This document shows, one piece after another, positions 5,145-59,240 of a stretch of 64,000 bases of DNA; within the stretch, counting starts at the first letter, position 1, and the number at the start of each line of letters is the position of its first letter. A program made the position numbers and the translations under genes. The stretch comes from Mustelus asterias (Eukaryota): assembly GCF_964213995.1 (NCBI RefSeq), contig NW_027590224.1, positions 248,001 to 312,000 on the forward strand. Reading direction: 5' to 3'. Below the pieces are notes generated by a model. That model did no database searches and was not told the DNA's origin. It was given only the letters and a program-made list of their open reading frames with translations.

Positions 5145-5261
5145 TGGATAACTGATAACATTGATGGTCACACACAACACATTTAATCATTGATATTATA
5201 GTGAGTATTAGCGGCTGCTTTAGGACTGAACTAGAAGTTATCACCAGGTTATTGATAATCA

Positions 5262-5845: not shown

Positions 5846-5884
5846 CAGACACTAGAATAAAGTATGATTTGAGATTTTAAAGTA

Positions 5885-8408: not shown

Positions 8409-8509
8409 CTGGGGAGAGAAATATCAATATTTAACACTGAATGATTTGTAGACCCACTTATTTATAATTTACAGATGGGACTGAATTGGGGGAACAGTCA
8501 ATACTGAGG

Positions 8510-14104: not shown

Positions 14105-14639
14105 CTGGGGAGAGAAATATCAACATTTAATATTGGATGGTTTGTAAATTCTTTAGATTCGATAATCCATTCCCCCCCGCCACTGGTGTACAGTGGCTGC
14201 AGTGTGGACCATCCACAGAACACACAAGGAACTCCCCAACGTTACACAATGGATGGAAGAGAATCCTGGACACAGGAGTGGACAAGTTCATTCTACATTG
14301 GCTCATGGTCCTCAGGACCCTGTTTATTGAAGCCAGTCTTCCACCCAGCACACATTCTGCAAGATGCACCAATTCAGATGTATGCAGGCTGGACAATGGA
14401 TTAGGAGCCCTCAGAACTCCCACCATTGTCACCGTCATGAATCATTAATTAGCCTCACCTTCTGGATCCTCATTGTCTCAGACTGTGGTTCTTATTGTAA
14501 TTTGTGTTTCATGGATAGCAGCATGACATCACTGAAGGGCAAGTGTGTCATGTGATCTAGTCTCAGTTTCACTTTGAGCAGAACACAGCACACACATCTC
14601 TGCTGCTAGTGTCTTCAAGCTTTCTATCCATGTACATCT

Positions 14640-15665: not shown

Positions 15666-15666
15666 C

Positions 15667-15983
15667 TAAATCATAAAATCCCGACAGCACAGAAAGAGGC
15701 CATTTGGCCCATCGAGTCTGAACCGACCACAATCCCACCCAGGGCCTATTCCCGTGACCCTCATTTACCCTGCTAATCCCCCTGACACTCGGGAGCAAAT
15801 TAGCATGGCCAATCAGCCTAACCCGCACATCTTTGGACTGTGGGAGGAAACCAGAGCACCCGGAGGAAACCCACACAGACACAGGGAGAACGTGCAAACT
15901 CCACACAGACAGTGACCTGAGGCCAGAATTGAACCTGGGTCCCTGGCACTGAGTGGCAGCAATGCTAACCACTGTGCCACCCT
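15667..15983 (-). mobile_element. HE1-type V-SINE
   Basis: tRNA head, V-domain and CR1-like tail; matches 60431-60782 in reverse. Confidence 0.92.
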
Positions 15984-16019
15984 AAATTAATTAATTTACA
16001 ACACATTTACAAAATCCCT

Positions 16020-18600
16020 TTTGAATTATCAGCGCCTTTTTATCATTCTAAAAGCACAACATGATCTTCAGCAGTGGTCAAACATTCTGGCAGCAAGATT
16101 CAGTACAGCTACAACATGGTGAGCAGCCTTACATCGCGCTACATGTCATGAGACCACTCTCGTTATTTTGGTCTGTCCATAACAGTCGCAGTGTTGGAGA
16201 GTGTGGAAATCACAGCTGCTGACTGCATGGGGAATCTTTCAAGATGAAGCACGGACATAAAGTGATTGACAATCCAAAGCATGAGAGTGGGTACACAATG
16301 AGGTCACAAGCGTTGATCGATATTTCACATTACACACATATGAAATTAATTGCAGATTGTCATCCATAATGATCTCCAGGCACACAAACTAAACTGAAAA
16401 TGTCAGAGTTTGCGCAACAGTTGTACTTAACAGTTATTATACAATTGTTGAAAATTTCACATGTTTCAGACTGTTAATCTCATGGAAAACGTAGATATTG
16501 TCACACCGTCTGAAGGGTTGCCAAGGTTTGAATTATCTATCCTCAGGAAGCTGACAACTACTCGTCATTGGCTAAGATTGACACAGAGGAAAGTGCTAAT
16601 ATACTGCCCCTGTGAATTCTAAAAGACATGTATCCACGTACATGGAAGGCCATGGTGAAAGCTGCCATTGAAACTTCCAGCACACAACTGTTCATTAATT
16701 CCACGCATGGGTTCCATAATCCTGGAGTACAAGCACAATCAATGCCTTCTGGGTGTCCCTGATGCTCTACATTGGGGAGACTAAAGGCCTAGTGATTGCA
16801 GGTCTACCACCCGTGGGAGTAATAGTCAGACACCAGATGCAGACGAACCCTGAAAACTACTCATATCAACTTAGTTCATGATCTAAAATAACCAGAAAGG
16901 TTCCAACAAAATTGATAGGGAGCTATACCTTGTTATATTTGCAGGAGAATGCAGGGGTGTCATTTGATCTGGGACATTTTGCACAATGCAAATGCCAGCA
17001 GATGCAAAACGAAATGGCGTAGGTTTCGACACTACAAAAACTGAAAAACTAGGGGCCGATTCTCCCAGCCCTCTGTGCTACTCTAACAGCGCAACGGGTT
17101 GGGAGGCATCAGCGGAGCATTTAGCGGACGCACCATGGCCTCAGTGCGTCTCCGGCTCCAAGTTTTTTTTAGAGTTATCATCTCCACACCAGAAATTGGC
17201 ACAGAACTGATGTAAATATTTCAATTTCATTAGTGGGCTGGGGATTCAACTCTCCGGGACCGCGAGCGTCTCCCCCTCTCGCCAGAAGTGGTTCACTCCA
17301 GCGGGGTTTACAACAGTGCGGGGGGGGTTGGACATGACATCGGGGCTGGCCCGGAGAGGTTCGGGAGGCCATCCTCTGGGGAGGAGGGAGTTGTTGACGG
17401 GTCGGAGGGGCAGAGATGTGTTGTTGTGGGGCTGGCCAGCGATCGGGAGGCTGGCACTGCGGGGCTATTGTGCATGCGTTCTCTGCACTGACAGATGACG
17501 CATGCTCAGTGGCCCAGACAGCGCTATGCTGGCGGCCTCTCCAGTCGGAATATTCCCAGTACACTGATTTTCAGAGTGAACCTTGCTATGGCACTCCGTG
17601 GTGCACAGACTGGGAGATTCATTCTGAAAATCACGCTAAATAAACCAACGTGATTTACTCCAGTTTTCATGCAATTCGGAATTTGGAATTTTTTTGGGAG
17701 AATCACCACGTATCGGTGGGAAATTGCCTGATTCAAGTCAGCATGTCCAAGATGGTGCAAGTCCATTTTGGCCTCACTGGGATGAGTTCGGCATCTCCCA
17801 GGATCATTTTTAAAGGCAGGCCAACCAATCATACTGGAATCTTTGTGACCTGATACTTTTCAGCAACTTGATCACTCAAACATGGCCGAACTAAGTGTTA
17901 TTTTCAGTTTATTTGGTGTGCCCAGAGAGATCATAGTAGATAATGGTCTGAAAATTACTGGTAAGCCAATTCAGGATTTGAGTGAGAAGTGAAATATTGA
18001 TCACACTACTTTTCATTACTCTAGATCTGAATGAGTGATCTGCAGAGTGAGACCCTTAATCTTCAAATGTAGACAGACCAAGGAAGATCTGCACATTGCA
18101 ATGTTCTTTCTGAGACCAACACCTTTAAATGCAACTACTCCATCACTAGCAGAGCTCACATTTGACCAGTGCGTACCAATTTACCCAATCTGACCCATTC
18201 TACTCTCTCAGAAACTAGACAGCAACATTTAAAGCTGCAAGAGAAGATGACAAATGTGCACAAGAAAATGCAGGCACAGTATTGCCAAGTTTACAGCTGG
18301 GACAAGTTCCGAGGCAGGATTTGTCCAGACCAAGGGTTCTATGTAGTCGTGCCGCACAAAGGTGGGACGGTGAGGTGTATCCGAGGACTAATCTGTTTCT
18401 TCCCAATTCCTCAATCACTGGAGCACCGTAGATTAGATTCCAAATGAAACCAGGAACAACATCCAAGAATGAGAATCCCACAGATCATTGCAAGCAATTA
18501 AATAAACTTCCAGACAAGGTCACCATTACAAGATCTAGGTGCACCAGCAGTTTACCTCTCTATCTGAGAGACTGATGGCTTCATTGGCTCTATACACTCA
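16020..18600 (+). mobile_element. Highly degraded Ty3/Gypsy pol remnant
   Basis: FGVPREIIVDNG integrase motif at ~17912-17947; boundaries uncertain. Confidence 0.55.
17052..17709. mobile_element. PIF/Harbinger-like MITE, shorter copy
   Basis: TIRs GGGGCCGATTCTCCCA / TGGGAGAATCACCAC; TSD imperfect (CTA/GTA). Confidence 0.72.
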
Positions 18601-18709
18601 CGTAATGGAAACTAAAGATGAACATGACATCAGAAACCTCTCACTCTCTGTCCTACCCATGGCTTCAGCAGGAACCTGAGAAGTTGCGGATATGGGTCTT
18701 AAATCATCA

Positions 18710-18910
18710 GATTGTAGAATGATCCAGCACAGAACGAGGCCATTCGACCATCTTGACTGTGTTGGCTCTTTGAAGGATCTGTCCAATTTGTCCCACTCTA
18801 CTTGCTCTTTCCCCCATAGCCCTGTAAATATCCCTTTCAAGTATTGATCCAATTGCCCCTTTTGACTGTTCCTGTTGAATCTGCTTCCAGCGTCTTTTCA
18901 GGGAGTGAGT
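18710..18910 (-). mobile_element. CR1 3' end fragment
   Basis: CR1 3' UTR (AGCACAGAACGAGGCCATTCGACC) in reverse. Confidence 0.7.
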
Positions 18911-19584
18911 CAATTGTCTCCTTCAGAGCTGCAAAGCTCAGAGATTGTGTGAAATTTAAACTTTACAGCAGCTTAGAGGCAATCATGAGAACTCAAAATA
19001 TTTCACACTTTTACACACTGACTGCTCTGTCTTCCTTCTCTTTTTCAGTTATCTTGCACCCTGATCGATGTTCCTAGAAATGGTGAGAATGGACAGGGGG
19101 TGTGATGTCTATTCTAGGAACTGCTGTGTTGTCGTCATGGAAAATTCAGATTAAAATGAGCAAAAGTCACACATTTCAGGCCATTGCCATTGGTGTCCGA
19201 GCATTGGGATAGAATTCCCCCAGTTTTTACCCCTGTTCCTCCACTCAAACCATCATCCCGTCACTCGCTGAGATACACTGGCTCCCAGCAACACCTCGAT
19301 TTTAAGATTGTCATCCGCAATTTCCAAACCTTCCATCTCCCCTCTCCACTCCCTATCTCTATATCCTCCACCTGCACTGCAACCCTCCTTCTGCTCTGCT
19401 CCAACTCTGCTGTCAGACGGGGAGTCAGTGTGTATCAGTGAGCACAGGGGTGATGGGTGATTGGGACTGGGTGTGAGTTTGTACACTGGGTCACTGCTGA
19501 ATTGGTTCCCAATTAGAGCTCAATAAGAATCTCTTTCACAAAGATTATTAACCATAAATCTGTCCGAGCTGACGATGATATTAC

Positions 19585-19624
19585 CTTGGAGAAGGGACAG
19601 GAGGAAGTAAGATTTCCTGATCAT
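19585..19624 (-). CDS. Gene A leader exon, coding part (MIRKSYFLLSLLQ + G); full exon 19585-19666
   Basis: ATG at 19624 in ACAATGA context, donor AAG|GTAATA phase 1, acceptor CTCCTTTCTCTTTCAG; conserved 82-bp exon at 56400-56481; signal peptide completed by the start of the V exons. Confidence 0.88.
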
Positions 19625-41335: not shown

Positions 41336-41500
41336 CAAAGAGACAAAGAGATGTAGAAAGAGAGAGAGTTAGAGAGAAAGTGACAGAAACAGAGGCAGAG
41401 AAAGAGAGGAAGAGCCAGTCAGAGAGAGGGCCAGTGAGGGACAGAACAAGATACAAAGAAAGTGAAAGATACAGAGGGAGACAAAGAGGTAGAGACTAGA
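41336..41500. repeat. GA-rich low-complexity tract
   Basis: Purine-rich simple sequence. Confidence 0.8.
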
Positions 41501-41697
41501 GAGTTGTGATTGAATCTCTGCCCCCAGTGGTTCAGCATCAAGTCATCACTGGAGAAGAATTTCATTCCAAATCCCGCCAATCACAGACCCATTCAGTCCC
41601 TCTCTCCCCCACTGGTTGGTCTCATGTTCCCTGGAATCTCAAAACCGACCCCCACCCCCTCCCCTCCTCACCTTCTCTCCCCATTTCACACAGTGCT

Positions 41698-41793
41698 TTA
41701 GTGGAATCTGATCTGTGTGTATTCCACCACCTCTTCCCTGTGGACTCTCCCGTCACCACTGGGTACCCTCAAGACTATCAGGAGGTATCTGAC
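41698..41793 (-). other. Putative, possibly disconnected, cytoplasmic-tail exon of gene B with two tyrosine motifs (VRYLLI...VEYTQIRFH*)
   Basis: C-terminus of ORF 42087-41698; Tyr codons at 41785-41787 and 41719-41721, 22 residues apart, ending at a stop like Siglec ITIM + ITIM-like tails; 1.4 kb downstream of the TM exon. Exon 5' boundary unresolved. Confidence 0.55.
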
Positions 41794-42454
41794 TGTCATT
41801 TCAGCAGACACAACCTCATTATTCCAGTGAGGCAGCTTCTTTCCTGGTGTGTGTCTCATCAGACAAGATCTCATTACTTCAGTTAATTCAGTTCCCTTCT
41901 GGTGTTGAGGCCGTCCTTGTTGTGCCCATATTTGGTTAGAGGCACCCGACTCCTCGAATTGGCCGCTTTTACCAGCATGCAACTCGGTCTGGCTACAACA
42001 GGAAATAGCAAATTTGAGCCAAGAATTTGCATCAAAATAAGTTTTATTCTGTAAAGATATACAGAACAGGCTGAGCATTTTAATCACTTGTGTTAATAAA
42101 TGTAATATTATTCATAACCCAAATGCTTCTTACAATCTAAACCAGCATGAGAAAGCTGCAGCATTCAGAAAGCACATTCTGATCTGATTACAAAGCTGAG
42201 CAACATTTCTATTCATTACTATTTGACCATGTTGGCTGCACACAGTGAGACAATGCCTTGGTTATGATGTGTCCACACAGCAGAACTGGGGAGCAGCAGG
42301 GATAAGGAAAGGTTTCAGCTTGCTGAGGAGAAGAAGGAGAATCTCTGGTCCCAGGTTTCTCTCCGTACATTAAGAAGCACGCATGCTGATGTTCCATTGC
42401 TCTCTGTCTGCTTGTAAATTGCTGTTTATGCTGATGGGAAGAATAAGCTTTTCC

Positions 42455-43090: not shown

Positions 43091-43192
43091 AGTGATTCTA
43101 ACCAGGACCACTGAGTGGTTTCATTGTAACTTAACCCAACAGCGCACGTTATTTGTCTTCACTGACAAACGAGATTGTTACTGTACGAAGCT

Positions 43193-43332
43193 TTAAACAA
43201 TCTGTCCACTTCCTTTCACTGTATGTCGCTCCCAGACACAAACCCCAGCGACAGTGATAACGACACCCACAGTGAATATCACAGCTCGTATTCCCAGGAT
43301 CAGGATCACGTTCAGAATCTCTCCTCCATTGA
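43193..43332 (-). CDS. Gene B transmembrane/terminal exon (xNGGEILNVILILGIRAVIFTVGVVITVAGVCVWERHTVKGSGQIV*)
   Basis: Strong acceptor TTTCTTTCTGTGTGTTTTCTAG; the phase-1 frame, absent from the ORF track, gives a long hydrophobic helix with one Arg (43286-43288); in frame with the C2 exon. Confidence 0.82.
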
Positions 43333-43742
43333 CTAGAAAACACACAGAAAGAAATCATCACTTACTCTCCGCTTTCAATCTCTCGCTCTGGCCGAACAAT
43401 CAAGCTTCATATCACCGCCACGCTTGCTGTAATATTGATCCATCCTCTGGGATTAAATGGATCAGGAAGGTTTTCATTGTAAACGCTCTGAAAGTGGACA
43501 GTCTGAACTTTCACCTCAGCGTGGACCAATGGTGAGAATGGAGTAGTGCCCTGTTTGACTCCCTGTCCCGTGTTTCTCTTTGTTGCTGTGTGCAGGATTA
43601 TGTTGTAGAAATGTCCAGAAACGTTTACAGCAAGGTGGAAAACCATCTCAGACACGTGTCCAAATTACACAGGATTGCGACGGAATCCCTCACTGGGGAC
43701 TGACCTGTCTCACTTAATAAATAGTTCCTAACTTTACCCAGA

Positions 43743-43980
43743 GAGTGGGGAGAATGTGGGACTCGCTCCCACGGGGAGTGGGGAGAATGTGGGACTCGCT
43801 CCCACGGGGAGTGGGGAGAATGTGGGACTCGCTCCTATGGGGAGTGGGGAGAATGTGGGACTCACTCCCACGGGGAGTGGGGAGAATGTGGGACTCGCTC
43901 CTATGGGGAGTGGGGAGAATGTGGGACTCGCTCCTATGGGGAGTGGGGAGAATGTGGGACTCGCTCCTATGGGGAGTGGG
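43743..43980. repeat. 33-bp minisatellite derived from CR1 (GAGTGGGGAGAATGTGGGACTCGCTCCCACGGG), ~7 copies
   Basis: Unit translates as [11 protein letters not shown], matching the CR1 QRVVxxWNSLP segment; CR1 3' end continues to ~44140. Confidence 0.9.
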
Positions 43981-44244
43981 GTGAATTGTTTCGATGTATT
44001 TTAGGGGAAAGCTGGATGAACGCAAGTGGGAGAAACAAATGGAATGATATGGTGATGTGAGTGAGATGAAGTGGGGGAGGCCTTTGTGGAGCAGGAACAC
44101 TGACATGGAACAGATGGCCTGTTTCAGTTCTGGAAATACTATGTAATTCAGGAATGAAACTCCAGGGCCAATAAGAGAGAAAAAATCCGTTCAACATCGT
44201 CAAATAATCAAAAACCACTGCAGGAAATCACAATGTCCATGTAT

Positions 44245-45985
44245 TTTTTATTCATTCAATTGTGGGACAAGGGTGTCGCTGGCGGGCCAGCATTTATAAG
44301 CCATCTCTACGTGTCCTTGAGAAGGTGGTGGTGAGCTCTCTACTTGACACACTGCAGTTCCCGTGCTGTGAGTTGACCCACAATGCCATTAGGGAGCAAT
44401 TGCAGGATTTTGACCCAGCGACTGCAAAAGAACAGCGATATATTTCCAAGTCAGGGTAATGAGTGGCTTGGAGAGGAACCTCCAGATGGTGGTGTCCTCA
44501 GGTATCTGCTGCCCTAGTTCTTCTAGATGGTAGTGGTCATTGGTTTGGAAGGCGCTGCCTAAGGAGCCTTGGTGAGTTCCAGCAGTGCATCTTGTAGATG
44601 GTACACAAGGCTGCCACTGTCTGTCGGTGGTGGAGGGAGTGAATATTTGTGGATGGGGTGCCAATCAAGTGTGGCTTTGTCCTGGATGGTGTCGAGCTTC
44701 TTAAGTGTTGTTGGAGCTGCACCCAGTCAGGCAAGTGGAGAGTATTCCATCACACTCTTGACTTGTGCCTTGTAGATGGTGGACAGGCTCTGGGGAGTCA
44801 GGAGGTGAGTTACTCACTGCAGTATTCCTAGCCTCTGACCTGCTCTTGCAGCCACTGTGTTTATGTGGTGAGTCCAGTTGAGTTTCTGGTCAATGGTAAC
44901 CCCAAGGATGTTGACAGTGGGGGATTCAATTATGGTAGTGCCATTGAATGTCAAGGGGCGGTGGTTAGGTTATCTCTTATTGGTGATGGTCATTGCCTGG
45001 CATTTGTGTGGTGTGAATGTTAATTGCCACTTGTCAGCCCAAGCCTAGATATTGTCCAGATCGTCTTGCATTTGAACATGGACTGCTTCAGTATCACGAA
45101 TAGTGCTGAACATTGTGCAATCATTGGCGAACATCCCCACTTCTGACCTTATGACAAAAGGAAGGTCGTTGATGAAGCAGCAGAAAATAGTTGGGCCAAG
45201 GACACTACCTTGAGAGACTCCTGCAGAGATGTCCTGGAGCTGAGATGATTGACCCCCCACAACCATCTTCCTATGTGCCAGGTTTGATACCAACCAGTGG
45301 AGAGTTTGCCCCCGGATACATATTAATTCCAGTTTTACCAGGGCTCGAATGCGGCCTTAATGTCAAGGACTGTCACCCTCACCTCACCTCTGGAATTCAG
45401 CTCTTTCATGTATGTTTGAACCAAGGCTGTAATGAGGTCAGGAGCTGAGTGACCCTGGTGAAACTCAAACTGGTCACCACTGAGCAGGTTATTGCTGAGC
45501 AGGCGCTGCTTGATAGCACTGTCAATGACCTCTTCCATCACTTTACTGATGATTAAGAGTTGACTGATGGGGCAGTAATTGGCCAGGGTGGATTTGTGCT
45601 GCTTATTGTATAAAGGACATTCTTGGGAAAATTTTCACATTGTTGGGTTTCTGTACTGGAGGAGTTTGGCTAGGGGAGCGGAATGTTCTGGAGCCTTCAG
45701 TACTATTGCTGGAATGTTATCAGGGCCCATTGCCTTTGCAGTATCCAGTGCCTCCAACCGTTTCTTGATATCACGTGGAGTGAATCAAATTGGCTGGAGA
45801 CTGGCATCTGTGATGCTGGGGACTGGAGGAGGCCGAGATGGATGATCTGGCTGAAGATTGCTGCAAATGCTTCAGCCTTATCATTTGCACTGATGGCTGG
45901 GCCCATCCATCGCTGAGGATGGGAATGTTTGTGAAGCCTCCTCCTCCAGTGAGTTGTTTAATTGTTCACCACCATTCACGATGGA
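44245..45985 (-). mobile_element. CR1/L2-group LINE fragment
   Basis: DQFEFHQGHSAPDLITALV, LDIKAAF, GVSQGSVLGPTIF..FINDLP, MFANDCTMF. Confidence 0.9.
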
Positions 45986-46019
45986 TCAGGCAGGACTTCA
46001 TATAATCTGCGCCTCTTGA

Positions 46020-47530
46020 TGGTGGGAAAAATAGCAAATGCACTAGTGGTAATTTACCAAAATTCACTGGACTCTGGGGTGGTTCCCGCAGATTGGAAAA
46101 CAGCAAATGTGACGCCACTGTTTAAAAAAGGAGGTAGACAAAAGGCGGGTAACTATAGGCAGGTTAGCTTAACTTCTGTAGTAGGGAAAATGCTTGAATC
46201 TATCATCAAGGAAGAAATAGCGAGACATCTGGATATAAATTGTCCCATTGGTAAGATGCAGCATGGGTTCATGAAGGGAAGGTCATGTTTGACTAATTTG
46301 GTGGAATTCTTTGAGGACATTACATGTGCAGTGGACAATGGGGAACCTGTGGATGTGGTGTATCTGGATTTCCAGAAGGCATTTGACAAGGTGCCGCTCC
46401 AAAGACTGCTGCATAAGATAAAGGTGCACGGTGTTACAGGTAATGTATTAGCATGGATAGAGGATTGGTTAACTAACAGAAAGCAAAGAGTGGGGGTAAA
46501 TGGGTGTTTTTCTGGTTGGCGATCAGTGACTAGTGGTGTGCCTCAGGGATCAGTGTTGGGACCGCAATTGTTTATGATTTACATAGATGATTTGGAGTTG
46601 GGGACCAAGTGTAGTGTATCAAAATTCACAGATGATACTAAGATGGGTGGCAGAGCAAAGTGTGCAGAGGATGCTGAAAGTCTGCAAAGGGATATAGATA
46701 GTCTAAGTGAGTTGGCGAGGGTCTGGCAGATGGAGTACAATGTTGGTAAATCTGAGGTCATCCATTTTGGTAGGAATATTTAAATGGTAAAAAATTGCAG
46801 CATGCTGCTGTGCAGAGGGACCTGGATGTCCTTGTGCAGGAATCTCAAGGAGTTGGTTTGCAGGTGCAGCAGGTAATTAAAGAGGCAAATGGAATTTTGT
46901 CCTTTATTGCTAGAGGGATGGAGTTTAAAAACAGTGAGGTTGTGTTGCGGCTGTATAAGGTGCTAGTGAGGCCACACCTGGAGTACTGTGTACAGTTTTG
47001 GTCTCCTTCCTTGAGAAAGGATATACTGGCACTGGAGGGGGTGCAGAGGAGATTCACTAGGTTGATTCCGGAGTTGAGAGGGTTGGCTTATGAGGAGAGA
47101 CTGAGTAGACTGTGGCTATACTCATTGGAATTCAGAAGAATGAGGGAAGATCTTATAGAAATATATAAGATTATGAAGGGAATAGATAAGATAGAAGCAG
47201 GGAAGTTATTTTCACTGGGGGGTGAAACTAGAACTAGGGGGCATGGCTTCAAAATAAGGGGAAGCAGATTTAGGACTGAGTTGAGGAACTTCTTCACACA
47301 AAGGGTCATGAATCTGTGGAATTTCCTGCCCAGTGAAGCAGTTGAGGCTACCTCATTGAATGTTTTTAAGGCAAGGATAGATAAATTTTTGAACAGTAAA
47401 GGGATTAAGGGTTATGGTGAGCGGGCGGATAAGTGGAGCTGAGTCCATGAAAAGATCAGCCATGATCTTATTGAATGGCGGAGCAGGCTCGAGGGGCCAG
47501 ACAGCCTACTCCTGCTCCTAGTTTTTATGT
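46020..47530 (+). mobile_element. CR1/HER1 LINE 3' portion
   Basis: ORFs 45962-46783 and 46795-47442 with RT motifs; CR1 3' UTR. Confidence 0.95.
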
Positions 47531-49370
47531 CCTCTCATAATTTTGTACATTTCTATCAGATCCCCCCTCAGCCTCCTCTGTCCCAGGGAAAACAAGGCCA
47601 GCCTATCCAATCTCTCATCGTAGCTGAACCATTCCATCCCAGGCAACGTACTGGTGAATCTCCTCTGCACCCTCTCCAGTGCAATCAAGTCATTTCTATT
47701 ATGTGGCAACCGGAACTGCATTCAATATTCTTACCTGTGGTCTAAGCAATGTTTTATAAAGTTGTACCAAGACCTCCCTGCTCTCTATGTCCTGACTAAT
47801 GAAGGCAAGCATTCCTTCTTCATCATTCCATCTACCTGTGCTGCCACTTTCAAGGATCTATGGACTTGTACACCAAGGTCCCTTTGTTCTTCAATGCTTC
47901 CACGGGACCTACCGTTCAGTGTGTATATCCTACCTTTATTAGACCTCCCAAAATCACCTCACACTTATCAGGATTAAATTCGATCTGCCATTGCTCTGCT
48001 CAACTTACCAGCTGATCAACATCAGTCTGTAGCCTCAGACTATCCTCCTCATTATCAACAACACCACCAATTTCTGTGTTATCTGCAAACTTACTAATTC
48101 TACCTTCGACATTCACATCCAAGTCATGAATGTATATAACAAACAGCGAGGTTCTCAGCACCGATCCTTGTGGTACTCTGCTGGTCACAGGCTTCCAACC
48201 ACAACAGCAGCCCTTCACCTTCACCCTTTACCTCCGATTAACAAGCCAATTTTGAGTTCAATTTGCCAACTTGTCTTGGATCCCATGGGCGTTTTGGAAC
48301 AGCCTTCCATGTGGGACTTTGTCAAATACTTACTGAAGTCCACATTAACTGTACTCATCAATATATTTAGATCCCATTTCAAAAAACTCAATTCAATTTG
48401 TTAGACAGGATCTCCCACCAATAAATCCATGCTGACTATCCCTACCTTTCCAAGTGTTGATTAATCCTGCCCCTCAGAATTTTTTCCAATCATTTCCCTA
48501 CGACTGACGTTAGACTAACTGGTTTGTAATTTCCTGGCTAATCCTTGCTGCCCTTGAATAAAGGTCTAACATTCGCTCTCCTCCAGTCATCTGGCACTTC
48601 ACCTGTGGCCAGTGAAGATTTAAATATCCCTGTCAGGGCCCCTGCACTCTCCTCCCTTGCCTCCCTTGGCAGCCTGGGATACATCTCATCAGGCCCTGGG
48701 GATTTAAGCATCTTTATGGCCACTGAAGCATCTAATATCTCCTCCTTATTAATCTCAACATGTAATAAAATTTCACCATCCCAACTGAAATCTCCAGCTA
48801 CAATCAGCAGCTCCCTAATGAATACAGATGAAAAATATTCACTTAGGACCTTGCCCATGTTCTCTGGCTCCACGCACAGATTACCCCTTTGGGCTCTAAT
48901 GGGTCCCACTCTTTCTCTGGTCATCCTCTTGTTCTTAATATACCAATAAAATACCTCGGGTTTTTCTTGATCTTATCTGTCAATGATATTTTGTGGCCCC
49001 TCTTTGCCCTCCTGATTTACTTTTTAAGCACTCCCCTAAACTCTCTATATACTCCTGAAGGGCCTGCCCTGTTTTGAGTGGTTTATATCTACCATATGCT
49101 TCCTTTTTATTCTTTATCAAATTCTCGATATCCCTTGACATCCAGAGTTCCCTGGACTTGCCGCTCTTGCCTTTGACTTGTAGAGGAATATGTTGGCCTT
49201 GAACTCTCACTATTTCACTTTTAAAAGACTCCAACTTCCCAAATGTAGATTCATCTACAAGTAGCTGCTTCCAGTCTTTGTTTGCCAGATCCAGTCTAAC
49301 AATATTGAAATTGGCCTTCTCCCAATTTAGACACAGAATTTCTAGACTATTCTTATCCCTTTCCATAATG
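47531..49370 (-). mobile_element. Degraded CR1 LINE
   Basis: TRERVGPI, KSPGPDEMYPR, VPQGSVL, SKFADN, LERVQRRFT. Confidence 0.92.
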
Positions 49371-49974
49371 GCATTTTTATAATTAGATCTTTCAAAGAGC
49401 TAGGACAGTCTTGATGGGTCAAATGGCCTCTTTCTATGCTGCATCATTCCATGATCTCTCCTCTAGTCAGTAACCACTCTAGATCCCTCTTGAAGGCCAC
49501 AGAGAGTCAGCAGCCATTACACCAGCTGACAGCACATTTCAGAAGGTCCTGATGCTCTGGGAAAAAATGAACTTCCCAACATCCAGTCTATTCCTATATC
49601 GTGGAGAATGTAAACCCTTCAGGTAACACTGATGAATGTTTCAATAGATTGATTGATCAAATCTACCTTTTGAAAGAAATCATTTATTTCCAATGATCTA
49701 ACAGAATGTGTAACGAATTGGGCAGTGGAGTTGGTTTGAGCTTGGTGCAGGTTGAGAAGCTGGGAGACGCAAGAATGAAGTGCTTCAGTGCCACCACTGG
49801 TGGGAGGGTGTAAATACAATGTGACATTTACACAGGCAGTTAAACCAGGACAAGGACAGAATGGGAAAAGTCGAACACCATGTTAACCATTAATTTCATA
49901 AACGAATCCCCTCCTTAAACCACTCCATGTCGCTACCTTACTTTAAGATGCACACAAACTAGTCTGAAGTCACA

Positions 49975-50225
49975 TACCAAGTCTGAGGTCACGTACCAAC
50001 CGACTCAAGAACAGCTTCTTCCCTGCTGCTATCAGACTTTTGAATGGACCTACTTTGCACTAAGTTGATCTTTCTCTACACCCGAGCTATGACTGTAACA
50101 CTACATTCTGCACTCTCCCATTTCCTTCTCAATGAACGTTATGTTTTGTCTGTATAGCGCGCAAGAAACAATACTTCTCACTGTATGTTCATACATGTGA
50201 CAATAATAAATCAAATCAAATCAAA
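49975..50225 (+). mobile_element. Rex1/Babar 3' end
   Basis: Matches 41095-41335; ends in (AAATC)n. Confidence 0.9.
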
Positions 50226-50469
50226 AACTATTTGACACTGAGCTACATAAGGAGTGGTTTTGACAGGCGACTTGTCAAAGTTAAGTTTTAGTATGTTTCT
50301 TAAAGGAGAGAGAGCTTATGTAAGTATCTTTGTGCTTGTAAAAGTATGTAATAAACTTTGGAAGCTCCATATTCCTCCATAATAATGGGAACAAAAAGTT
50401 TAAATTCACGGCCAACACTTCATGCAGGCCTGAGGCAGGTTCTGTATGGTAATTCTGTAAGTGTGTCTG

Positions 50470-50590
50470 TAATTATGGACCCCTCCACTGCTTCATATTC
50501 ATTCTCTGCCACACATTGATAGTCTCCAGTGACCCTGGATGTAACGTGAGGAATCACCAACCACAGCTCATTGTTGGAACTCGTTCTATT
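50470..50590 (-). pseudogene. Half Ig-domain exon remnant of gene B (NRTSSNNELWLVIPHVTSRVTGDYQCVAENEYEAVEGSIIT)
   Basis: Clear E-F-G strand motif L.L.I..V....GDYQCVAEN; in-frame TGA upstream, no B-strand Cys or C-strand Trp, no phase-1 acceptor or donor. Confidence 0.75.
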
Positions 50591-50894
50591 CCCAATGACA
50601 TTAAGATGTGAAAACAGGACGCATCAGGACAGATCACAAGTATACCAATGGTAAAAGAGGTCAACAATTTATACTTCATTAAAAGAGAGCGCTAATAGGT
50701 TGGCAAGTGGTAGAGGCATTCCCAATGGACAGTGCTGTGTACAGGATAAAAACATTAGATACTTATGTCCTTTTTTGCGGCAATACTATAATAAAGATCA
50801 GTTATCTGACATCGTCGCTGAGACCCTGAGAATGTGAAATGTCTGATATCAATGTAGGATCCTGCACCACAAAGCAAGGAATCCAGATAGACAT

Positions 50895-51965
50895 TCAGTT
50901 CAGTACTGAAAACGTTTGGCACTGTCAGAGGGTCACCACAGAGGGAGTGCTGCACTGTCAGAGGGTCAGTACTGGGAGAGTGCCGCACTGTCAGAGGGTC
51001 AGTATTGATGGAGCGCCGCACTGTCAGAGGGTCAGTACTGAGGGAGTGCTACACTGTCAGAGGGTCAGTACTGAGGGAGTGCCGCACTGTCAGAGGGTCA
51101 GTACTGAGGGAGTGCCGCACTGTCAGAGGGTCAGTACTGAGGGAGTGCCACACTGTCAGAGGGTCAGTACTGAGGGATTGCTGCACTGTCAGAGGGTCAA
51201 TACTGAGGGAGTGCCACACTGTCAGAGGGTCAGTGCTGAGGGAGTGCCGCACTGTCAGAGTGTCAGTACTGAGGGAGTGCTGCACTGTCAGAGGGTCAGT
51301 ACTGAGGGAGTCCTGCACTGTCAGAGGGTCAGTACTGAGGGAGTGCCGCACTGTCAGAGGGTCAGTACTGAGGGAGTGCCACATGTCAGAGGGTCAGTAC
51401 TGAGGGAGTGCCGCACTGTCAGAGGGTCAGTGCTGAGGGAGTGCCGCACTGTCAGAGGGTCAGTACTGAGGGAGTGCTGCACTGTCAGAGGGTCAATACT
51501 GAGGGAGTCCTGCACTGTCAGAGGGTTAGTACAGAGGGAGTGCAGCACTGTCAGAGGGTCAGTATTGAGTGAGTGCTGCACTGTCAGAGGGTCAATACTG
51601 AGGGAGTCCTGCACTGTCAGAGGGTCAGTACTGAGGGAGTGCTGCACTGTCAGAGGGTCAATACTGAGGGAGTCCTGCACTGTCAGAGGGTCAGTACTGA
51701 GGGAGTGCTGCACTGTCAGAGGGTTAGTACTGAGGGAGTGCCGCACTGTTACAGGGTCAGTGCTGAGGGAATGCTGCACTGTCAGACGGTCAGTGCTGAG
51801 GGAGCGCCGCACTGACAGAGGGTCAGTACAGAGGGAGCGCAGGACTGTCAAGAGGGTCAGTACTGAGGGAGTGCCGCACTGTCAGAGGGTCAGTACTGAG
51901 GGAGTGCCGCACTGTCAGAGGGTCAGTACTGAGGGAATGCCGCACTGTCAGAGGGTCAGTACGAA
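50895..51965. repeat. 33-bp minisatellite array 4
   Basis: ~32 copies, begins ~40 bp from the C2 exon donor. Confidence 0.97.
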
Positions 51966-52003
51966 GGGACCTGTAATGTATAATAAAGAAAGCCTGTATT
52001 TAC

Positions 52004-52297
52004 ATTGCACAGTGAGTACGAGTGTCTGCTCCGATGAAACAGATGGATATCTCACTCTACAGGTGAGATTGTGTCCGTGGTGCTTGAGTGATGGGATCAG
52101 GGTCAGAACAGAAGTATAGGTCAGAGTGACACCATGCTGAGTTACAGTGTTTGAGACTGACCCAGGTACGTCAGTGGGAGGGTCCCAGGTTAAGACAGGT
52201 GCTGTTCCATTGCACGTTGTGTTGAAGGTGCAGCTTATGTCCACACGCTTTCCTGCAATAACTTCAGCAGGGAATATTGTGGGTTTATCTGTGAAAT
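52004..52297 (-). CDS. Siglec/MAG-like gene B, C2-set Ig exon
   Basis: 294 bp, phase 1-1, acceptor CTGTGTGTTAG, donor GTAAAT; paralog of 1069-1362. Confidence 0.92.
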
Positions 52298-53081
52298 CTA
52301 ACACACAGAGAATGGATCCTTTTAGATAAATATAACATGAAGCATCAGTTCAAATAGAAATCACAGCCCCACAAGAGAAAGCACTGTTACAAGGATGAAA
52401 TCATCCACAATCATCTGAGAGACTTTAAAGATTAGGAAACAGTGTCAGTTCTTTGGATGTTGAGGTTTCTGTCACTCAGCTGAATGCACTTTCTTGAATG
52501 GATAATACTGGGCGAGAGTGGAGGAGCAGATCAGAGCTTAGAGTGCACTGGATCATCATTGACTTAGCAATCCAGCCAAATCTCCCAGTCCTCTCTGTGG
52601 GAGCACAAACTGGCCGCTGTGGTTCCTGAATTACAACAGTTCAGGAATTACTTCATTGTCTGTGAATTAATTTGGGACATGGTAAAAGTCACAATAAAAA
52701 TGTGAGTATTTCTTTTGTCAATGGGTCAGACTATTAAACAGGATTCGAGAGATCGATGGGAGTGGATAACCTGATAAATTCAGTTAATACATTTAATCAT
52801 TGATATTAAAGTGAGTATTAGAGGTTGCTTTAGGACTGAACTGGAAGTTATCACCAGGTTATTGATAAACAGACATTGACAAAAGCTGTGTTTTGTGTTA
52901 ATATGTAGAATTATAGAATGATAAAATACCTACAGTGCAGAAGGGGGCCATTAAGTCCATTGAGTTTGCACTGACCACAATCCCACCCAGGTCCTATCCC
53001 CGTAACCCCACATATTTACCCTACTCATCTCCCTGAAATTAAGGGGCAATTGAGCATGGCCAATCCATCTAACCCGCACAT

Positions 53082-54301
53082 TTTTTTTATTCATTCGTGG
53101 GACATGGGTGTCATTGGCTGGCTAGCATTTATTATGTGGAGATGCCGGCGTTGGACTGGGGTAAACACAGTAAGAGTTTTAACAACGCCAGGTTAAAGTC
53201 CAACAGGTTTATTTGGTAGCAAATGCCATTAGCTTTCAGAGCGCTGCTCCTTCGTCAGATGGAGTGGATATCTGCTCTCAAACAGGGCACAGAGACACAA
53301 AATCAAGTTAGAATACTGATTAGAATACGAATCCCTACAGCCAACCAGGTCTTAAAGATACAGACAATGTGAGTGGAGGGAGCATTAAGCACAGGTTAAA
53401 GAGATGTGTATTGTCTCCAGACAGGACAGCATTTATTGCCCATCCCTAGTTGCCCTTGAGAAGGTGGTGGTGAGCTGCCGTCTTGAATCGCTGCAGTCCA
53501 TGTGCTGTGGATTAGCCCACAATGCAGTTAGGGAGGGAATTCCAGAATTTTAACCCAGTGACTGTGAAGGAACAGCGATATATTTCCAAGTCGGGATGGT
53601 GAGTGACTTGGAGGGGAACTTGCAGGTGGTGGTGTTCCCGTGTATCTGCTGCCCTTGTCCTTCTAGATGGAAGTGGTTGTGGGTTTGGAAGGTACTGTCT
53701 TCGGATCTTTGGTAAATTGCTGCAGTGCATCTTGTAGATGGTACACACGGCTGCTACTGAGCGTCAGTCGTGGAGGGAGTGGATGTTTGTAGATGTGGTG
53801 CCAATCAAGCAGGGCTGCTTTGTCCTAGATGGTGTCGAGCTTCATGAGTGTTGGAGCTGCACCCATCCAGGCAAGTGGGAGTATTCCATTGCACTCCTGA
53901 CTAGTGCCTTGTAGATGGTGGACAGGCTCTGGGGAGTCAGGAGGTTAGTTACTCACTGCAGTATTCCTAGCCTCTGACCTGCTCTTGTAGCCACTGTGTT
54001 AATGTGGTGAGTCCAGCTGAGTTTCTGGACAATGGTAACCCGAAGGATGTTGATAGTGGGGGATTCAATGATGGTAACACCATTGAATGCGAAGGAGCAG
54101 TGATTGGAGTTTCTCTTATTCGCGATGGTCATTGCCTGACATTTGTGTGGCATGAATGTTACTTGTCATTTGTCAGCCCAAGCCTGGATATTGTCCAGAT
54201 CTTGTTGCATTTGAACATGGAATGCTTCAGTATCTGAGGACTCGCGAATGGTGCTGAACATTGTGCAATCATCGGCGAACATCCCCACTTCTGACCTTAT
54301 G
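53082..54301 (-). mobile_element. CR1/L2-group LINE 3' fragment (same family as 44245-45985)
   Basis: GMFADDCTMF, QDLDNIQAWADK; shared 3' end TTTATTCATTC. Confidence 0.9.
53134..53427 (-). mobile_element. Penelope pLTR with hammerhead (53226-53262)
   Basis: Reverse complement of 4850-5142; 10-bp TSD AGCATTTATT. Confidence 0.9.
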
Positions 54302-54526
54302 ACATCTTTGGACTGTGGGAGGAAACCAGGGCACCCAGATGAAACCCACACAGACACGGGGAGAACGTGCAAACTCTACACTGCCAGACAACCGGAATTT
54401 AAGTCGGAATTTAACCCAGGTCCCTGGAGCTGTGAGGCAGCAGTGCTAACCACTGTGTCACCGTGCGTAAATGTCACAGTTTGAGTTATTTCCCATTGCG
54501 TGTTGAATGTGAATTGTTGCACTTAC

Positions 54527-54892
54527 CAGAAACATGAAGCTGGGTTAGAGGATAATAACTGTAATGATATTCGTTGTCAAACTTTATTCTGAAATAATAA
54601 GATCCTGCATCTTCCTGTGTGACGTTGTTTAGAATCAGGGAACAGTCGCCATCTTTCAGGTCTCCAGACAGCCGGGTCCGATGGCGGAACAATGGCAATG
54701 TGTGATTTTGATTCTTGGAATGAAAGGCTATGGACCATGTTCCCCATTCCTTGTTAGTATACCAGATTCCAACTCGCGGTCGTTTTGCTAAATGCGATGG
54801 ATAACTGTAATGACATGGAATTTGTACACACGAACCTTCCTGCACTGTCATCTGTTCTGGATTGTAGACTTTTATTTCTTGTGACAGTGCAA
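54527..54892 (-). CDS. Siglec/MAG-like gene B, V-set exon V3
   Basis: 366 bp, phase 1-1, acceptor TTTCTCTCCTCAG, donor GTAAGT; CVQIPC, DCSL, YYFRIK. Confidence 0.93.
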
Positions 54893-55367
54893 CTGAGGAG
54901 AGAAATATCAATATTTAACACTGGATGGATTGTAGATCCACCAGACTCGATATCCACCCCCTCTGTCACTGGTACACAGTGGCTGCAGTGTGGACCATCT
55001 ACAGGACAAAAGGAACTACCCAAGGTTTCTCAATGAATAAAAGAGAATCCTAGACACAGGAGTGGACAAGATCATTCTACATTGACTCATAGTCCCCTGG
55101 ACCTTGTTTAGTGAATCCATTCTTCCACCCAACACAATATCCACAAGACGCACCTGTTGAGATACATTCAGTGCTGATTTACAAGGCAGGACAATGGAAT
55201 CCTCAGAAATCCCACCATCATCACCCTCTTGAACCACTGGTTAACCTCGCCCTCCTGTTTGCTCTTCAACGCAGCTGATTGAATCAGATTGAACCAATCA
55301 CATTGGTGCAATTTGTGTCTTCACTGTCTGAGGTATCTATTTGTATCCTCATTGTCAAAGGAACCCT

Positions 55368-56153
55368 GGTGATGTGAGGTGATTCATTTTGGTAGGACTA
55401 ATTTAAATGTGGATTACAGGGTCAAAGGTAGGGTTCTGAAGACTGTGGAGGAACAGAGAGATCTTGGGGTCCATATCCACAGATCTCTAAAGGTTGCCAC
55501 TCAAGTGGATAGAGCTGTGAAGAAGGCCTATAGTGTGTTAGCTTTTATTAACAGGGGGTTGGAGTTTAAGAGCCGTGGGGTTATGCTGCAACTGTACAGG
55601 ACCTTGGTGAGACCACATTTGGAATATTGTGTGCAGTTCTGGTCACCTCACTATAAGAAGGATGTGGAAGCGCTGGAAAGAGTGCAGAGGAGATTTACCA
55701 GGATGCTGCCTGGTTTGGAGGGTAGGTCTTATGAGGAAAGGTTGAGGGAGCTAGGGCTGTTCTCTCTGGAGCGGAGGAGGCTGAGGGGAGACTTAATAGA
55801 GGTTCATAAAATGATGAAGGGGATAGATAGAGTGAACGTTCAAAGACTATTTCCTCGGGTGGATGGAGCTATCACAAGAGGGCATAACTATAGGGTTCAT
55901 GTTGGGAGATATAGGAAGGATATCAGAGGTAGGTTCTTTACGCAGAGAGTGGTTGGGGTGTGGAATGGACTGCCTGCAGTGATAGTGGAGTCAGACACTT
56001 TAGGAACATTTAAGCGGTTATTGGATAGGCACATGGAGCGCACCAGGATGATAGGGAGTGGGATAGCTTGATCTTGGTTTCAGATAAAGCTCGGCACAAC
56101 ATCGTGGGCCGAAGGGCCTGTTCTGTGCTGTACTGTTCTATGTTCTATGTTCT
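55368..56153 (+). mobile_element. Young CR1 3' fragment
   Basis: Open ORF2 C-terminus 55379-56071, (GTTCTAT)n tail, TSD AACCCT. Confidence 0.95.
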
Positions 56154-56399
56154 AACCCTTTTGGATCTTCATTAAAGATAGGGAGGGTTGAAGGGACTGG
56201 TGGAAGCTACTGAGATAGGGAGGGGTGACGGGACTGGTGGAGGTTACAGAGATAGGGAGGTCTGTCAGAGCTGGAGGAGGCCTTTAATGAGTTTGTACAC
56301 TGGGCCACTGCTGAATTGGTTCCCAATCAGAGCTCAATAAGAATGATCTTTTACAAAGACTATTAAACATAAATCTGTCCGAGCTGATGATGATATTAC

Positions 56400-56439
56400 C
56401 TTGGAGAAACGACAGGAGGAAGTAAGATTTCCCGATCAT
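56400..56439 (-). CDS. Gene B leader exon, coding part (MIGKSYFLLSFLQ + G); full exon 56400-56481
   Basis: Same structure and splice sites as 19585-19666. Confidence 0.88.
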
Positions 56440-56542
56440 TGTCCACTCCCAGATATTTCACCAGCTTCTCACTCTCAAGCTCTGAAAGAGAAAGGAGTTA
56501 ATGAGACCTCACCTCTTGTCTGACAGCTCTCAAGAGATCGAG

Positions 56543-56855
56543 CTTGTGGGTGACACAGTGGTTAGCACTTCTGCCTCACAACGCCAAGGACCCGGGTTCG
56601 ATTCCAGCTTTGGTCACTGTCTGTATGGAGTCTGCATGTTCTCCCCGTGTCTGCGTGGGTTTCCTCCGGGTGCTCCAGTTTCCTCCCACACTATGTAGGT
56701 GAGGTGGATTGGCCATGCTAAATTGTCCCTTAGTGTTAAGGAGATTAGCTGGGTAATTATGTGAGGTTAAGGGGATAGGGCCTGGGTGGGATTGTTGATG
56801 GTGCAGGCTCCAGGGGCTGAATGGCCTTCTGCGCTGCAGGGATTCTATGATTTTA
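56543..56855 (+). mobile_element. HE1-type V-SINE
   Basis: A/B boxes, V-domain, CR1-like tail; absent at the paralogous site ~21957. Confidence 0.9.
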
Positions 56856-57204
56856 AAGAACTGCTTTTAGACAATGTCATCACAGACAAATTGGATTCTG
56901 TGTTGGATGATAGGTGCTCTGCAGAGAGTCACAAGGCTTTAAGAAAGAGAAACAATGGAGGACTTTCATTTCTATAGCGCCTTTCAGCACCTTCAGATAC
57001 CCCAAAGCTCATGACTCTGCAACTCCCTCGTTCCTTGAACTAGAAGGATGTTCTGTACGACAGGATTAACCTCACACTAGGATCCCAATAATCAGTAGAA
57101 ATCTTTCAAAAGCGTCAATCATTGGAATCTGTCTATAAAGTCACAACATCAACAAAGGACAATGTTGCTCATGGAAAATAATTCTAATCGATACGTTTTT
57201 TTAC

Positions 57205-57360
57205 CCAGGACCTATCTGACTCCTCTACTGGAGCGTAACTGCTGACACACCATGCGGAAGCTGAATAAGCTCTCCCTGTAATGCTTCTTCTCTGTATTTG
57301 AATAGAAAGCGTCGACATGTTTCTGAGAATCCAAATGAGAAAGTGCTAATGAGGTGGGTA
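57205..57360 (-). promoter_or_regulatory. Diverged second copy of gene B exon 1/promoter
   Basis: 56960-57350 is homologous to 22040-22450 and 58840-59240; donor weakened to GTAAAA. Confidence 0.45.
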
Positions 57361-57585
57361 AAAAACTCATGTTTTGGATTAATGGTAAACTGTTAACTCT
57401 TTGTGTACTCAACCAGTGATGATATTTCGACTCAAAAGGAGGATCAGCATTGAGAAGGAATTTCCACTATGGGCCAGAGGGTTTCACACGCTATCTCCCT
57501 CTCCGTTATCTGTGTGAAGATCATATGTTCAAAACCCCATTGCAAAGCCCTGAGCCCCATAAACCAGGGCAAAGGTTTAAAGAGT

Positions 57586-58817
57586 AAGTACTGAGGGAGT
57601 GCCGCACTGTCAGAGGGTCAGTGCTGAGGGAGTGCCGCTCTGTCGGAGGGTCAGTACTGAGGGAGTGCCGCACTGTCAGAGGGTCAGTACTGAGGGAGTG
57701 CTGCACTGTCAGAAGGTCAGTACTGAGGGAGTGCCGCACTGTCAGAGAGTCAGTACTGAGGGAGTGCTGCACTGTCAGAGGGTCAGTACTGAGGGAGTGC
57801 CACACTGTCAGAGGGTCAGTACTGAGGGAGTGCCGCACTGTCAGAGGGTCAGTCCAGAGGGAGTGCTGCACCGTCAGAGGGTCAGTACTGAGGGAATGAT
57901 GCACTGTGGGAGGGTCAGTACTCAGGGAGTGCCGCACTGTCAGAGGGTCAGAGCTGAGGGAGTGCTGCATTGTGAGAGGGTCAGGACTGAGGGAGTGCCG
58001 CACTGTCAGAGGGTCAGTACTGAGGGAGTGCCGCTGTCGGAGGGTCAGTACTGAGGGAGTGCCGCACTGTCAGAGGGTCAGTACTGAGGGAGTGTCGCAC
58101 TGTCAGAGGGTCAGTACTGAGGGAGTGTCGCACTGTCAGAGGGTCAGTGCTGAGGGAGTGCCGCACTGTCAGAGGGTCAGTACTGAGGGTGTGCCACACT
58201 GTCAGAGGGTCAGTACTGAGGGAGTGTTGCACTGTCAGAGGGTCAGTCCTGAGGGAGTGTCGCACTGTCAGAGGGTCAGTGCTGAGGGAGTGCCACACTA
58301 TCAGAGTGTCAGTACTGAGGGAGTGCCACACTGTCAGAGGGTCAGTACTGAGGGAGTGCCGCGCTGTCAGAGGGTCAGTACTAAGGGAGTGCTGCACTGT
58401 CAGAGGGTCAGTACTGAGGGAGTGCTGCACTGTCAGAGGGTCAGTACTGAGGGAGTGCCGCACTGTCAGAGGGTCAGTATTGAGGGAGTGCTGCACTGTC
58501 AGAGGGTCAGTCCTGAGGGAGTGCCGCACTGTCAGAGGGTCAGTACTGAGGGAGTGCCGCACTGTCAGAGGGTCAGTACTGAGGGAATGCCGCACTGTCA
58601 GAGGGTCAGTACTGAGGGAGTGTCACACTGTCAGAGGATCAGTACTGAGGGAGTGCCACACTGTCAGAGAGTCAGTACTGAGGAAGTGTCACACTGTCAG
58701 AGGGTCAGTACTGAGGGAGTGCTGCACTGTCAGAGGGTCAGTACTGAGGGAATGCTGCACTGTCAGAGGGTCAGTACTGAGGGAATGCTGCACTGTCGGA
58801 GGGTCAGTACTGAGGGA
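57586..58817. repeat. 33-bp minisatellite array 5
   Basis: ~37 copies, same orientation as the others. Confidence 0.97.
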
Positions 58818-59086
58818 AGAGTATAACAGGGTAAGAAGAGAAGACTTGAATTTTCATAGCAACTTTCCCTAGCTCAAGACATCAAAATCTAATGTCTCCA
58901 CACTTCCCTCGTCCCTTGAACTGGAAGGATGTTCTGTACGACAGACTGAGTCTCACACCCAGATCTCAATAATCAGTAGAAATTTTTCAAAGTCATTAAT
59001 CATTGGAATCTGTCTTAATAAAGTCTCAACATCAATAAAGGACAATGTTGGTACTGGAAGTGAATTCCAATCGTTCCGTTACTTAC

Positions 59087-59240
59087 CCAGAACCTGTCCG
59101 ACTGCTCACCTGGGGAATAACTGCTGACCCGCTCTGCTTGGGCTGAATGGCCTCTCTCTGCTGCTCCCTCTGTGTGTTTAATGAGAAAGCATTGATGTGA
59201 GTCAAAACAAGGAAGAGGTTAAGAAGTGAGAAACTAGCTT
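59087..59240 (-). promoter_or_regulatory. Putative non-coding exon 1 and promoter of gene B
   Basis: Donor TGG|GTAAGT at 59087/59086; homologous to 22303-22460; TGAGTCA (AP-1, 59198-59204), AGGAAG, GAAGTGAGAAACT. Confidence 0.6.

Follow-up and report, generated by a model that had tools for sequence, protein, structure and literature searches.

Paired Siglecs are described chiefly in primates. In humans, Siglec-14 is paired with Siglec-5 and Siglec-16 with Siglec-11; Siglec-14 and Siglec-16 have a Siglec ectodomain, a basic residue in the transmembrane (TM) segment, no ITIM (short for immunoreceptor tyrosine-based inhibitory motif), and ITIM paralogues clustered with them. The same features come together in the gene that we consider here, which lies on the minus strand of a 64,000-nucleotide stretch from the shark Mustelus asterias (the window, with positions counted from its first letter; G000:C192:248001-312000 in its 3.68-Gb source genome, G000). 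According to published sources, a receptor whose TM contains a basic residue and whose tail is short couples to adaptors that carry the immunoreceptor tyrosine-based activation motif, or ITAM (PMC13358205), one NxxR TM subtype is common to Xenopus receptors of the FCRL, SLAM/CD2 and leukocyte receptor complex (LRC) families (PMC2413239, PMC4536121, PMC6557307), and inhibitory CD33-related Siglecs are lacking in fish genomes (a teleost study, PMC7226832).

We propose, with a probability of about 0.6, that the product of this gene is a Siglec of two Ig domains that carries an arginine within its TM segment and lacks a signalling tail. The receptor likely serves to activate leukocytes via an ITAM adaptor (most likely FcR-gamma), and its anchor exon, shared with a SLAM-like gene, probably replaced the TM and ITIM exons of an inhibitory Siglec.

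Gene structure and Siglec identity

We begin by considering the exons, which are as follows.

59087..59199 (minus strand): first exon, probably non-coding, with a GTAAGT donor at 59086, recognised from 77-91% copies 5' of leader exons across the cluster
56400..56481 (minus strand): leader exon, ATG at 56439, coding part 56439-56400 (40 nt)
54527..54892 (minus strand): Siglec V-set exon with Cys35, Cys40, Cys97 and the F-strand Arg115 (YYFR); A-strand Trp replaced by Ile
52004..52297 (minus strand): C2-set exon with Cys158, Cys164 and Cys215
50475..50609 (minus strand): 135-nt remnant of a third Ig exon, dead, 90% identical to the intact exon of the neighbouring paralogue
43193..43332 (minus strand): terminal coding exon, TM with Arg249, 12-residue tail, stop

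The four coding parts (40 + 366 + 294 + 140 nt) give 840 nt, i.e., 279 amino acids and a stop. All three introns have a GT donor and an AG acceptor, and every junction is in phase 1. This is the in-frame chain (56439-56400, 54892-54527, 52297-52004 and 43332-43193) that an earlier, sequence-only reading had put together, and it stands as described, down to the letters of the TM with its Arg and of the 12-residue tail without Tyr. Judged from its letters, the gene is real and intact. The N-terminus of the leader is identical in two models from another shark (P0056 and P0062), and no transcript is seen for the probable first exon (59087..59199). A third Ig exon can be ruled out as a coding exon of this gene, for the fragment at 50475..50609 is all that is present; its 5' half and normal end were looked for and not found. 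Arg249 lies inside a 29-residue hydrophobic stretch that ends at the cytoplasmic Trp267, 18 residues further on, and the two top-scoring 19-residue hydrophobic segments both include it. A basic TM residue and a short tail without ITIM are features of activating Siglecs and, with the Arg found in 10 of 10 aligned TMs, they support the activating type to which the gene had been assigned.

Is the ectodomain that of a Siglec? The protein has an N-terminal V-set and a C2-set domain and a type I TM, as Siglecs do. The V exon matches the Pfam models V-set (E 3e-13) and Ig_CD22 (E 7e-10) and the C2 exon matches C2-set_2 (E 4e-8), so these open exons are not due to chance. The Siglec cysteine pattern consists of a B-E intrasheet pair, no F-strand Cys, and an extra Cys in both V and C2 for an interdomain bond. 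Here Cys35/40/97 and Cys158/164/215 align with cysteines of Siglec-5 and CD33, the bonds themselves being predicted only. In PDB alignments Arg115 lines up with the essential F-strand Arg (YxFR) of Siglec-5, MAG and sialoadhesin, a residue present in 22 of the 23 V exons of G000. Aromatic residues on the A and G strands flank the sialic-acid site of Siglecs, and the G-strand Tyr is kept in this gene. The V domain would bind sialylated glycans through Arg115. The best PDB matches of V alone are MAG (ranked first) and Siglec-5; those of P0056, which has the same layout as the window gene, are Siglec-5 and CD33. Against mammalian Siglecs, V plus C2 of P0056 gives 102 bits for Siglec-5, 95 for CD33, 87 for MAG, 45 for Siglec-15 and 44 for CD22. 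A CD33-related orthology is a possible reading of these scores; V alone ranks MAG first, and the V tree has no mammalian rows.

The same order of leader, V, C2 and Arg-TM, with a direct C2-TM join, is found in models from S. canicula (P0056, P0062) and C. carcharias (P0061). Two of these, XP_038669862 ("Siglec-14-like", P0056) and XP_041037190 ("CD33-like", P0061), share the ILGIRAVIF segment and the short tail, and their TMs are 76-82% identical to that of the window gene; their names are automatic only, and the literature search found no paper on them. In all, 101 homologues were found, the 100 named ones all from sharks and rays and one unnamed, and seven of the 101 carry this Arg TM. These homologues and the ITIM-tailed paralogues of the cluster, one of which is the neighbouring gene in the window, bear out the earlier suggestion of an expanded elasmobranch Siglec-like family.

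The 52004/43332 junction between C2 and TM was expected in transcripts. Four runs were compared over the TM region, the RNA status of one of them (X1) being the tool's guess. X1 provides one 728-nt contig over 43110-43328 with an 82-nt loose end, which reads into the first bases of the TM exon and then a C2-exon end; the contig continues through the stop into the 3' untranslated region (3'UTR). By eye, 24 of 26 letters of this C2 end are as in the window gene, and the best of 12 other C2 ends in G000 has 21 of 26. Nothing from runs X2 and X4 matched the TM region, and X21 gave unspliced pieces only.

Origin of the membrane exon

The next question is where the TM exon came from. Three features at and behind this exon bear on it.

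43162..43497 (minus strand): TM module, 68% over ~340 nt to the TM exon of a SLAM-like gene (G000:C8:14.22 Mb)
42043..42244 (minus strand): 3'UTR stretch, 70-73% to the 3'UTR of ITIM-type Siglecs, AATAAA at 42048
41449..41776 (minus strand): second relic, from an inhibitory-type tail exon (its 3' end, EYTQIRF), without ITIM, seen behind the window copy only

The homology of the module takes in 165 nt of upstream intron, which makes a DNA-level copy likelier than a processed mRNA. Searching G000 with the DNA of the TM region gives five places, four Siglec copies and the one on C8, and a protein search gives the same five; with five places only, the exon is ruled out as a common repeat. By exon order, the Arg-TM class of Siglecs comprises the window gene, two genes on C20 and one broken copy (7-nt deletion). 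The C8 exon has ILGIRAVIF and a short tail and lies 0.6 kb 3' of a CD2/SLAM-type C2 exon. Eight homologues of this gene were found, all seven informative names among them are SLAM-like, and the intact bamboo-shark carrier P0113 is placed among SLAM clusters at 0.97 (Atlas). In DNA, SLAM-Arg against Siglec-Arg scores 249 (z 66-76 against shuffles), and each Arg exon against six native Siglec TM regions and a native SLAM TM scores 21.5-37.5 (z -0.8 to 3.2). The ectodomains of the two kinds of carrier are barely alignable (27%, E 0.008), and the Arg is invariant in all ten aligned TMs, Siglec and SLAM carriers alike. On this comparison of sequences, the TM of the window gene did not arise by mutation of a Siglec TM but belongs to a module that a SLAM-like gene also carries.

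The eight SLAM homologues divide evenly: four have the Arg TM (P0107, which matches G000, two catsharks and Hemiscyllium) and four have an uncharged TM with a Tyr tail (Heterodontus, Heptranchias, Pristiophorus and Callorhinchus). The Tyr-tailed SLAM gene of G000 lies ~50 kb upstream of the Arg-TM SLAM gene. This SLAM-like pair occupies G000:C8:14.16-14.23 Mb, with another broken V at 14.23 Mb; the Arg-TM SLAM gene has a low-quality flag in S. canicula, is V-deleted in S. torazame, and is intact in Hemiscyllium.

To see how far the module extends, a profile of the ten Arg TMs was compared with 1.84 billion representatives. It gives ten matches, of which nine are shark proteins and the tenth is an unnamed repetitive peptide; there is no match from rays, squalomorphs or chimaeras among these representatives, nor any in the PDB. 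The five new matches are all from carpet sharks: two CD33-like Siglecs, two V-less CD22-like proteins, and one single-V Siglec of another subfamily. Absence outside those sharks carries little weight, because 17 carpet-shark Siglecs among the 101 homologues also lack the module, yet the profile found carpet-shark carriers. The TM tree (unrooted, 44 columns) parts the SLAM carriers from the Siglec-cluster carriers with support 91/90, a pattern that fits one cross-family transfer before the orders split, followed by spread within the Siglec cluster. A transfer from SLAM to Siglec, first guessed from the taxon range, was dropped once the carpet-shark Siglecs with the module appeared. Compared with a native SLAM TM, SLAM-Arg gives a DNA z of 1.8, which is not significant; in protein, z is 1.7-7.1 for the native SLAM TM versus -0.5-3.7 for native Siglec TMs, values that are suggestive only, as hydrophobic strings inflate them.

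The 3'UTR stretch lies ~1.1 kb past the start of the TM exon; its counterpart in ITIM Siglecs sits just 3' of the stop codon, and the position of the AATAAA at 42048 matches that in two ITIM genes. All 15 matches of the stretch in G000 fall within the Siglec clusters on C20 and C192, and it is downstream of all four Siglec Arg-TM copies. The SLAM-like gene on C8 showed no homology to it. Because the TM module is foreign to Siglec TMs, yet an ITIM-type 3'UTR and AATAAA stand behind it, we infer a graft into an inhibitory host; the anatomy suggests that an inhibitory Siglec probably lost its TM and ITIM-coding exons and received the Arg exon in their place. The graft would have happened once, earlier than the divergence of carpet sharks from mackerel and ground sharks. 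A KIR2DL4-like product with both Arg and ITIM, made by way of the tail relic, is ruled out, since the relic has no ITIM and lies past the AATAAA.

Adaptor coupling and rival explanations

How would such a receptor signal? Arg249 would pair with the Asp pair of an adaptor, the pairing would lead to ITAM-Syk signalling, and the activating Siglec would act as a counterweight to its ITIM paralogues. TM exons of FcR-gamma and CD3-zeta with Asp are present in G000, and Tyr motifs downstream of the FcR-gamma exon fit two ITAM halves. In NxxR receptors coupled to FcR-gamma, the Arg stands in the N-terminal or outer part of the TM (PMC2413239), and FcR-gamma or zeta is put first because Arg249 lies in the outer part as well. 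A complex prediction for the TM peptide with an FcR-gamma TM dimer (0.12, mark 0.34) counts neither way. A wider proposal, to which we give even odds, is that galeomorph sharks possess a portable "activating cassette": an Arg-TM terminal exon would have moved between contigs and among the SLAM, CD33-like Siglec, CD22-like and single-V Siglec families, replacing the TM/ITIM exons of inhibitory receptors, yielding FcR-gamma-coupled receptors and leaving the host 3'UTR as a scar, with the window gene FcR-gamma-coupled, unlike the DAP12-coupled mammalian Siglecs.

Several observations weigh against an intact activating Siglec coupled to FcR-gamma. The NxxR motif is absent, nine of the ten aligned TMs reading L-G-I-R and one L-V-I-R. 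An Arg-free 19-residue segment still scores 2.14 versus 2.58, so Arg249 could lie at the membrane surface. Of 142 homologue V matches (144 pattern matches minus two C2 domains), 136 have the A-strand Trp that is Ile here, and the binding of sialic acid may therefore be weak or changed. The window stretch is contained in none of the runs recorded as RNA, and the X1 contig departs from the window at five TM-region letters and at the junction; it is therefore a relative or an allele, not the window copy. The expected C2-to-TM splice join is thus present in putative RNA from a relative or allele of the window gene, in a contig not identical to the window copy. Both named models over the C20 Arg genes skip the Arg exon, with a different TM at the end of P0007 and no TM in P0019, so the assignment of those two genes follows exon order alone. 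The V exon of the SLAM Arg carrier in G000 holds two stops. Finally, the V of the window gene is only 59-69% identical to 20 other V exons of G000 and has no close inhibitory partner (the comparison left out C20:310-370 kb, where the V exon listing shows none). The paired-receptor system suspected by the sequence-only reading is accordingly seen for the family, in which the C20 V exons g388v1 (Arg) and g466v1 (ITIM) are 97% identical, and not for the window gene.

It is unlikely, in our estimate, that the same gene of the same origin uses DAP12 (or DAP10), as mammalian Siglec-14, -15 and -16 do. Siglec-14 uses an Arg for DAP12 coupling, which together with the missing NxxR counts for DAP12; most DAP12 partners have a mid-membrane Lys, and the TM of the window gene does not descend from a Siglec TM, both of which count against it. 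Two sources have the human activating Siglecs coupled to DAP12 (PMC6288428, PMC13358205), a point for DAP12 and a further one against FcR-gamma, and a third has Siglec-15 using a TM Lys (PMC7226832), which speaks against DAP12. A search of G000 for a DAP10 exon gave two weak matches, the top one not DAP10-like and neither credible. A search with an ITAM model found no match anywhere in G000; no search was aimed at DAP12, so its absence is not implied.

A non-signalling decoy or an adhesion/uptake receptor, whose Arg merely anchors the helix at the outer membrane surface, is improbable. The 18 residues past the Arg within the 29-residue hydrophobic stretch could indeed span the membrane alone, and two short-tailed Siglecs of rays (P0091, P0092) lack this Arg, but the Arg is invariant whereas most neighbouring residues vary, it is kept on four ectodomain types, and in both families the Arg forms stand beside paralogues with ITIM or switch motifs (ITSM), the usual paired-receptor pattern. 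We rate slightly lower still the explanation that the window copy, on a small contig, is a duplicate that is decaying or is not expressed, the gene type itself being functional. It would accommodate the lost A-strand Trp, the relic exons in introns, the breakage of one of the four Siglec Arg-TM copies and of the SLAM carrier in G000 and, as weak evidence, the lack of a 100% protein match among the 101 homologues; the open frame, the canonical splice sites, the intact six Ig cysteines and Arg115, and the X1 contig, whose C2 end is closest to the window gene, argue for a working copy.

The Siglec cluster and comparison with known systems

We turn to the cluster in which this activating-type gene is found. 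G000 has 24 V exons at at least 59% and 13 full C2 exons at at least 84%, on C20 (0.12-0.76 Mb), C192 and C10; exons were mapped over C20:110-310, 370-430 and 450-790 kb, C192:170-330 kb and C10, with C20:310-370 and 430-450 kb left out. It is a clustered, fast-evolving, lineage-specific expansion, as in CD33-related Siglecs. By exon order, an ITIM class (uncharged TM, LLYANI/TEYAQI-type tail) has four genes plus one with a variant tail, and a YxN class (uncharged TM, YxN tails) has five. The V exons of Arg and ITIM genes intermingle in a quick tree, which groups partly by lineage and leaves 49 of 103 forks open. The mean pairwise ratio of nonsynonymous to synonymous change (dN/dS) is 0.69 among 21 V exons and 0.49 among 13 C2 exons, the C2 exons being far more uniform than the V exons (dS 0.09 vs 0.27); with means below 1 in both, positive selection on V or C2 is not supported. 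The other Siglec gene of the window is the following.

1069..19624 (minus strand): neighbouring paralogue, leader 19624-19585, V 14104-13751, V 8408-8040, C2 1362-1069

Outside the window this gene goes on into an uncharged TM and then a tail that contains VLYANI and TEYAQI; it is of the inhibitory type. In many paralogues the V exon stands two or three times in tandem, the essential Arg being present in nearly all of these exons, and annotated models have up to about seven; such paralogues are seen in the window (1069-19624, minus strand) and at G000:C20 388-395, 466-473, 678-682, 717-728 and 759-761 kb. The paralogue at G000:C20:606-629 kb has about eight near-identical tandem third Ig exons and two half C2 exons, and its ITIM reads LLYGNP. 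Remoter Siglec-like V exons (27-45%) are present at G000:C20:879-982 kb and 5.46-5.50 Mb, C16:69.08 Mb, C1061 and C2756, and mostly keep the F-strand Arg (Ile at C20:981 kb, Lys at C20:5483 kb).

In the YxN genes (G000:C20 120-260 kb and 527-552 kb; C10:90.67-90.69 Mb) the TM is uncharged and the YxN motifs come in pairs, with seven residues between the two (e.g., YANC-x7-YGNV), a spacing that is ITAM-like and not consensus; they may be a second activating or a Grb2-binding class. The region of the probable first exon (59055-59199, minus strand) is 76-88% identical to stretches just 3' of the TM exons of YxN genes (G000:C20:539076-539222, 133317-133460, 252996-253131 and 188256-188541; C10:90682509-90682792), which form the first cytoplasmic exon in annotated models (RGSSTGRGHSAQAE). 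One element seems to double as 5'UTR exon and tail exon.

The surrounding DNA of the window contains five arrays of a 33-bp minisatellite (1-685, 22667-23552, 32593-33674, 50919-51969 and 57587-58817) and further 33-bp and 28-bp arrays (43743-43986; 59740-60332), which account for several long repetitive open reading frames (ORFs). Broken ORFs resembling long terminal repeat (LTR) retrotransposons (gag/pol) and long interspersed elements (LINEs), recognised by eye, fill intergenic and intronic DNA (36509-39220, plus strand; 25566-29256, minus strand; 45962-47439; 19788-21803; 30693-31779).

What does this locus add to the known systems? The literature search found nothing on shark activating Siglecs or their Arg-TM exon, though supplements (e.g., PMC8455134) may list shark Siglec genes. 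The receptor logic is textbook and related models are already annotated automatically; the cross-family TM module and the graft scar are the new part. Sharks have their own cluster of ITIM and activating-type Siglecs, and the activating arm would trace back to a single exon that passed, at the DNA level, between receptor families unrelated to each other and left a scar. The origin of activating partners becomes directly testable across shark genomes, and a Siglec using a different adaptor is predicted.

Siglec-15 likewise combines a V-C2-TM layout and a basic residue, in its case a TM Lys that is conserved and serves DAP10/12 (PMC7226832), and scores far below CD33/Siglec-5 (E 7e-11 vs 3e-28 with V plus C2 of P0056). 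Compared with Siglec-14 and -16, the window copy has no near-identical inhibitory V (69%), its TM exon is shared with a SLAM gene, and the geometry of its Arg suggests FcR-gamma. The NxxR TM of Xenopus is likewise one Arg-TM type across Ig families, SLAM included, that makes activating members, with coupling to FcR-gamma shown in Xenopus; with this precedent, the sharing of a TM type across families is already a known kind. The shark module differs in having LGIR without NxxR, a Siglec host, DNA homology that includes the flanking intron, and the scar of the host 3'UTR.

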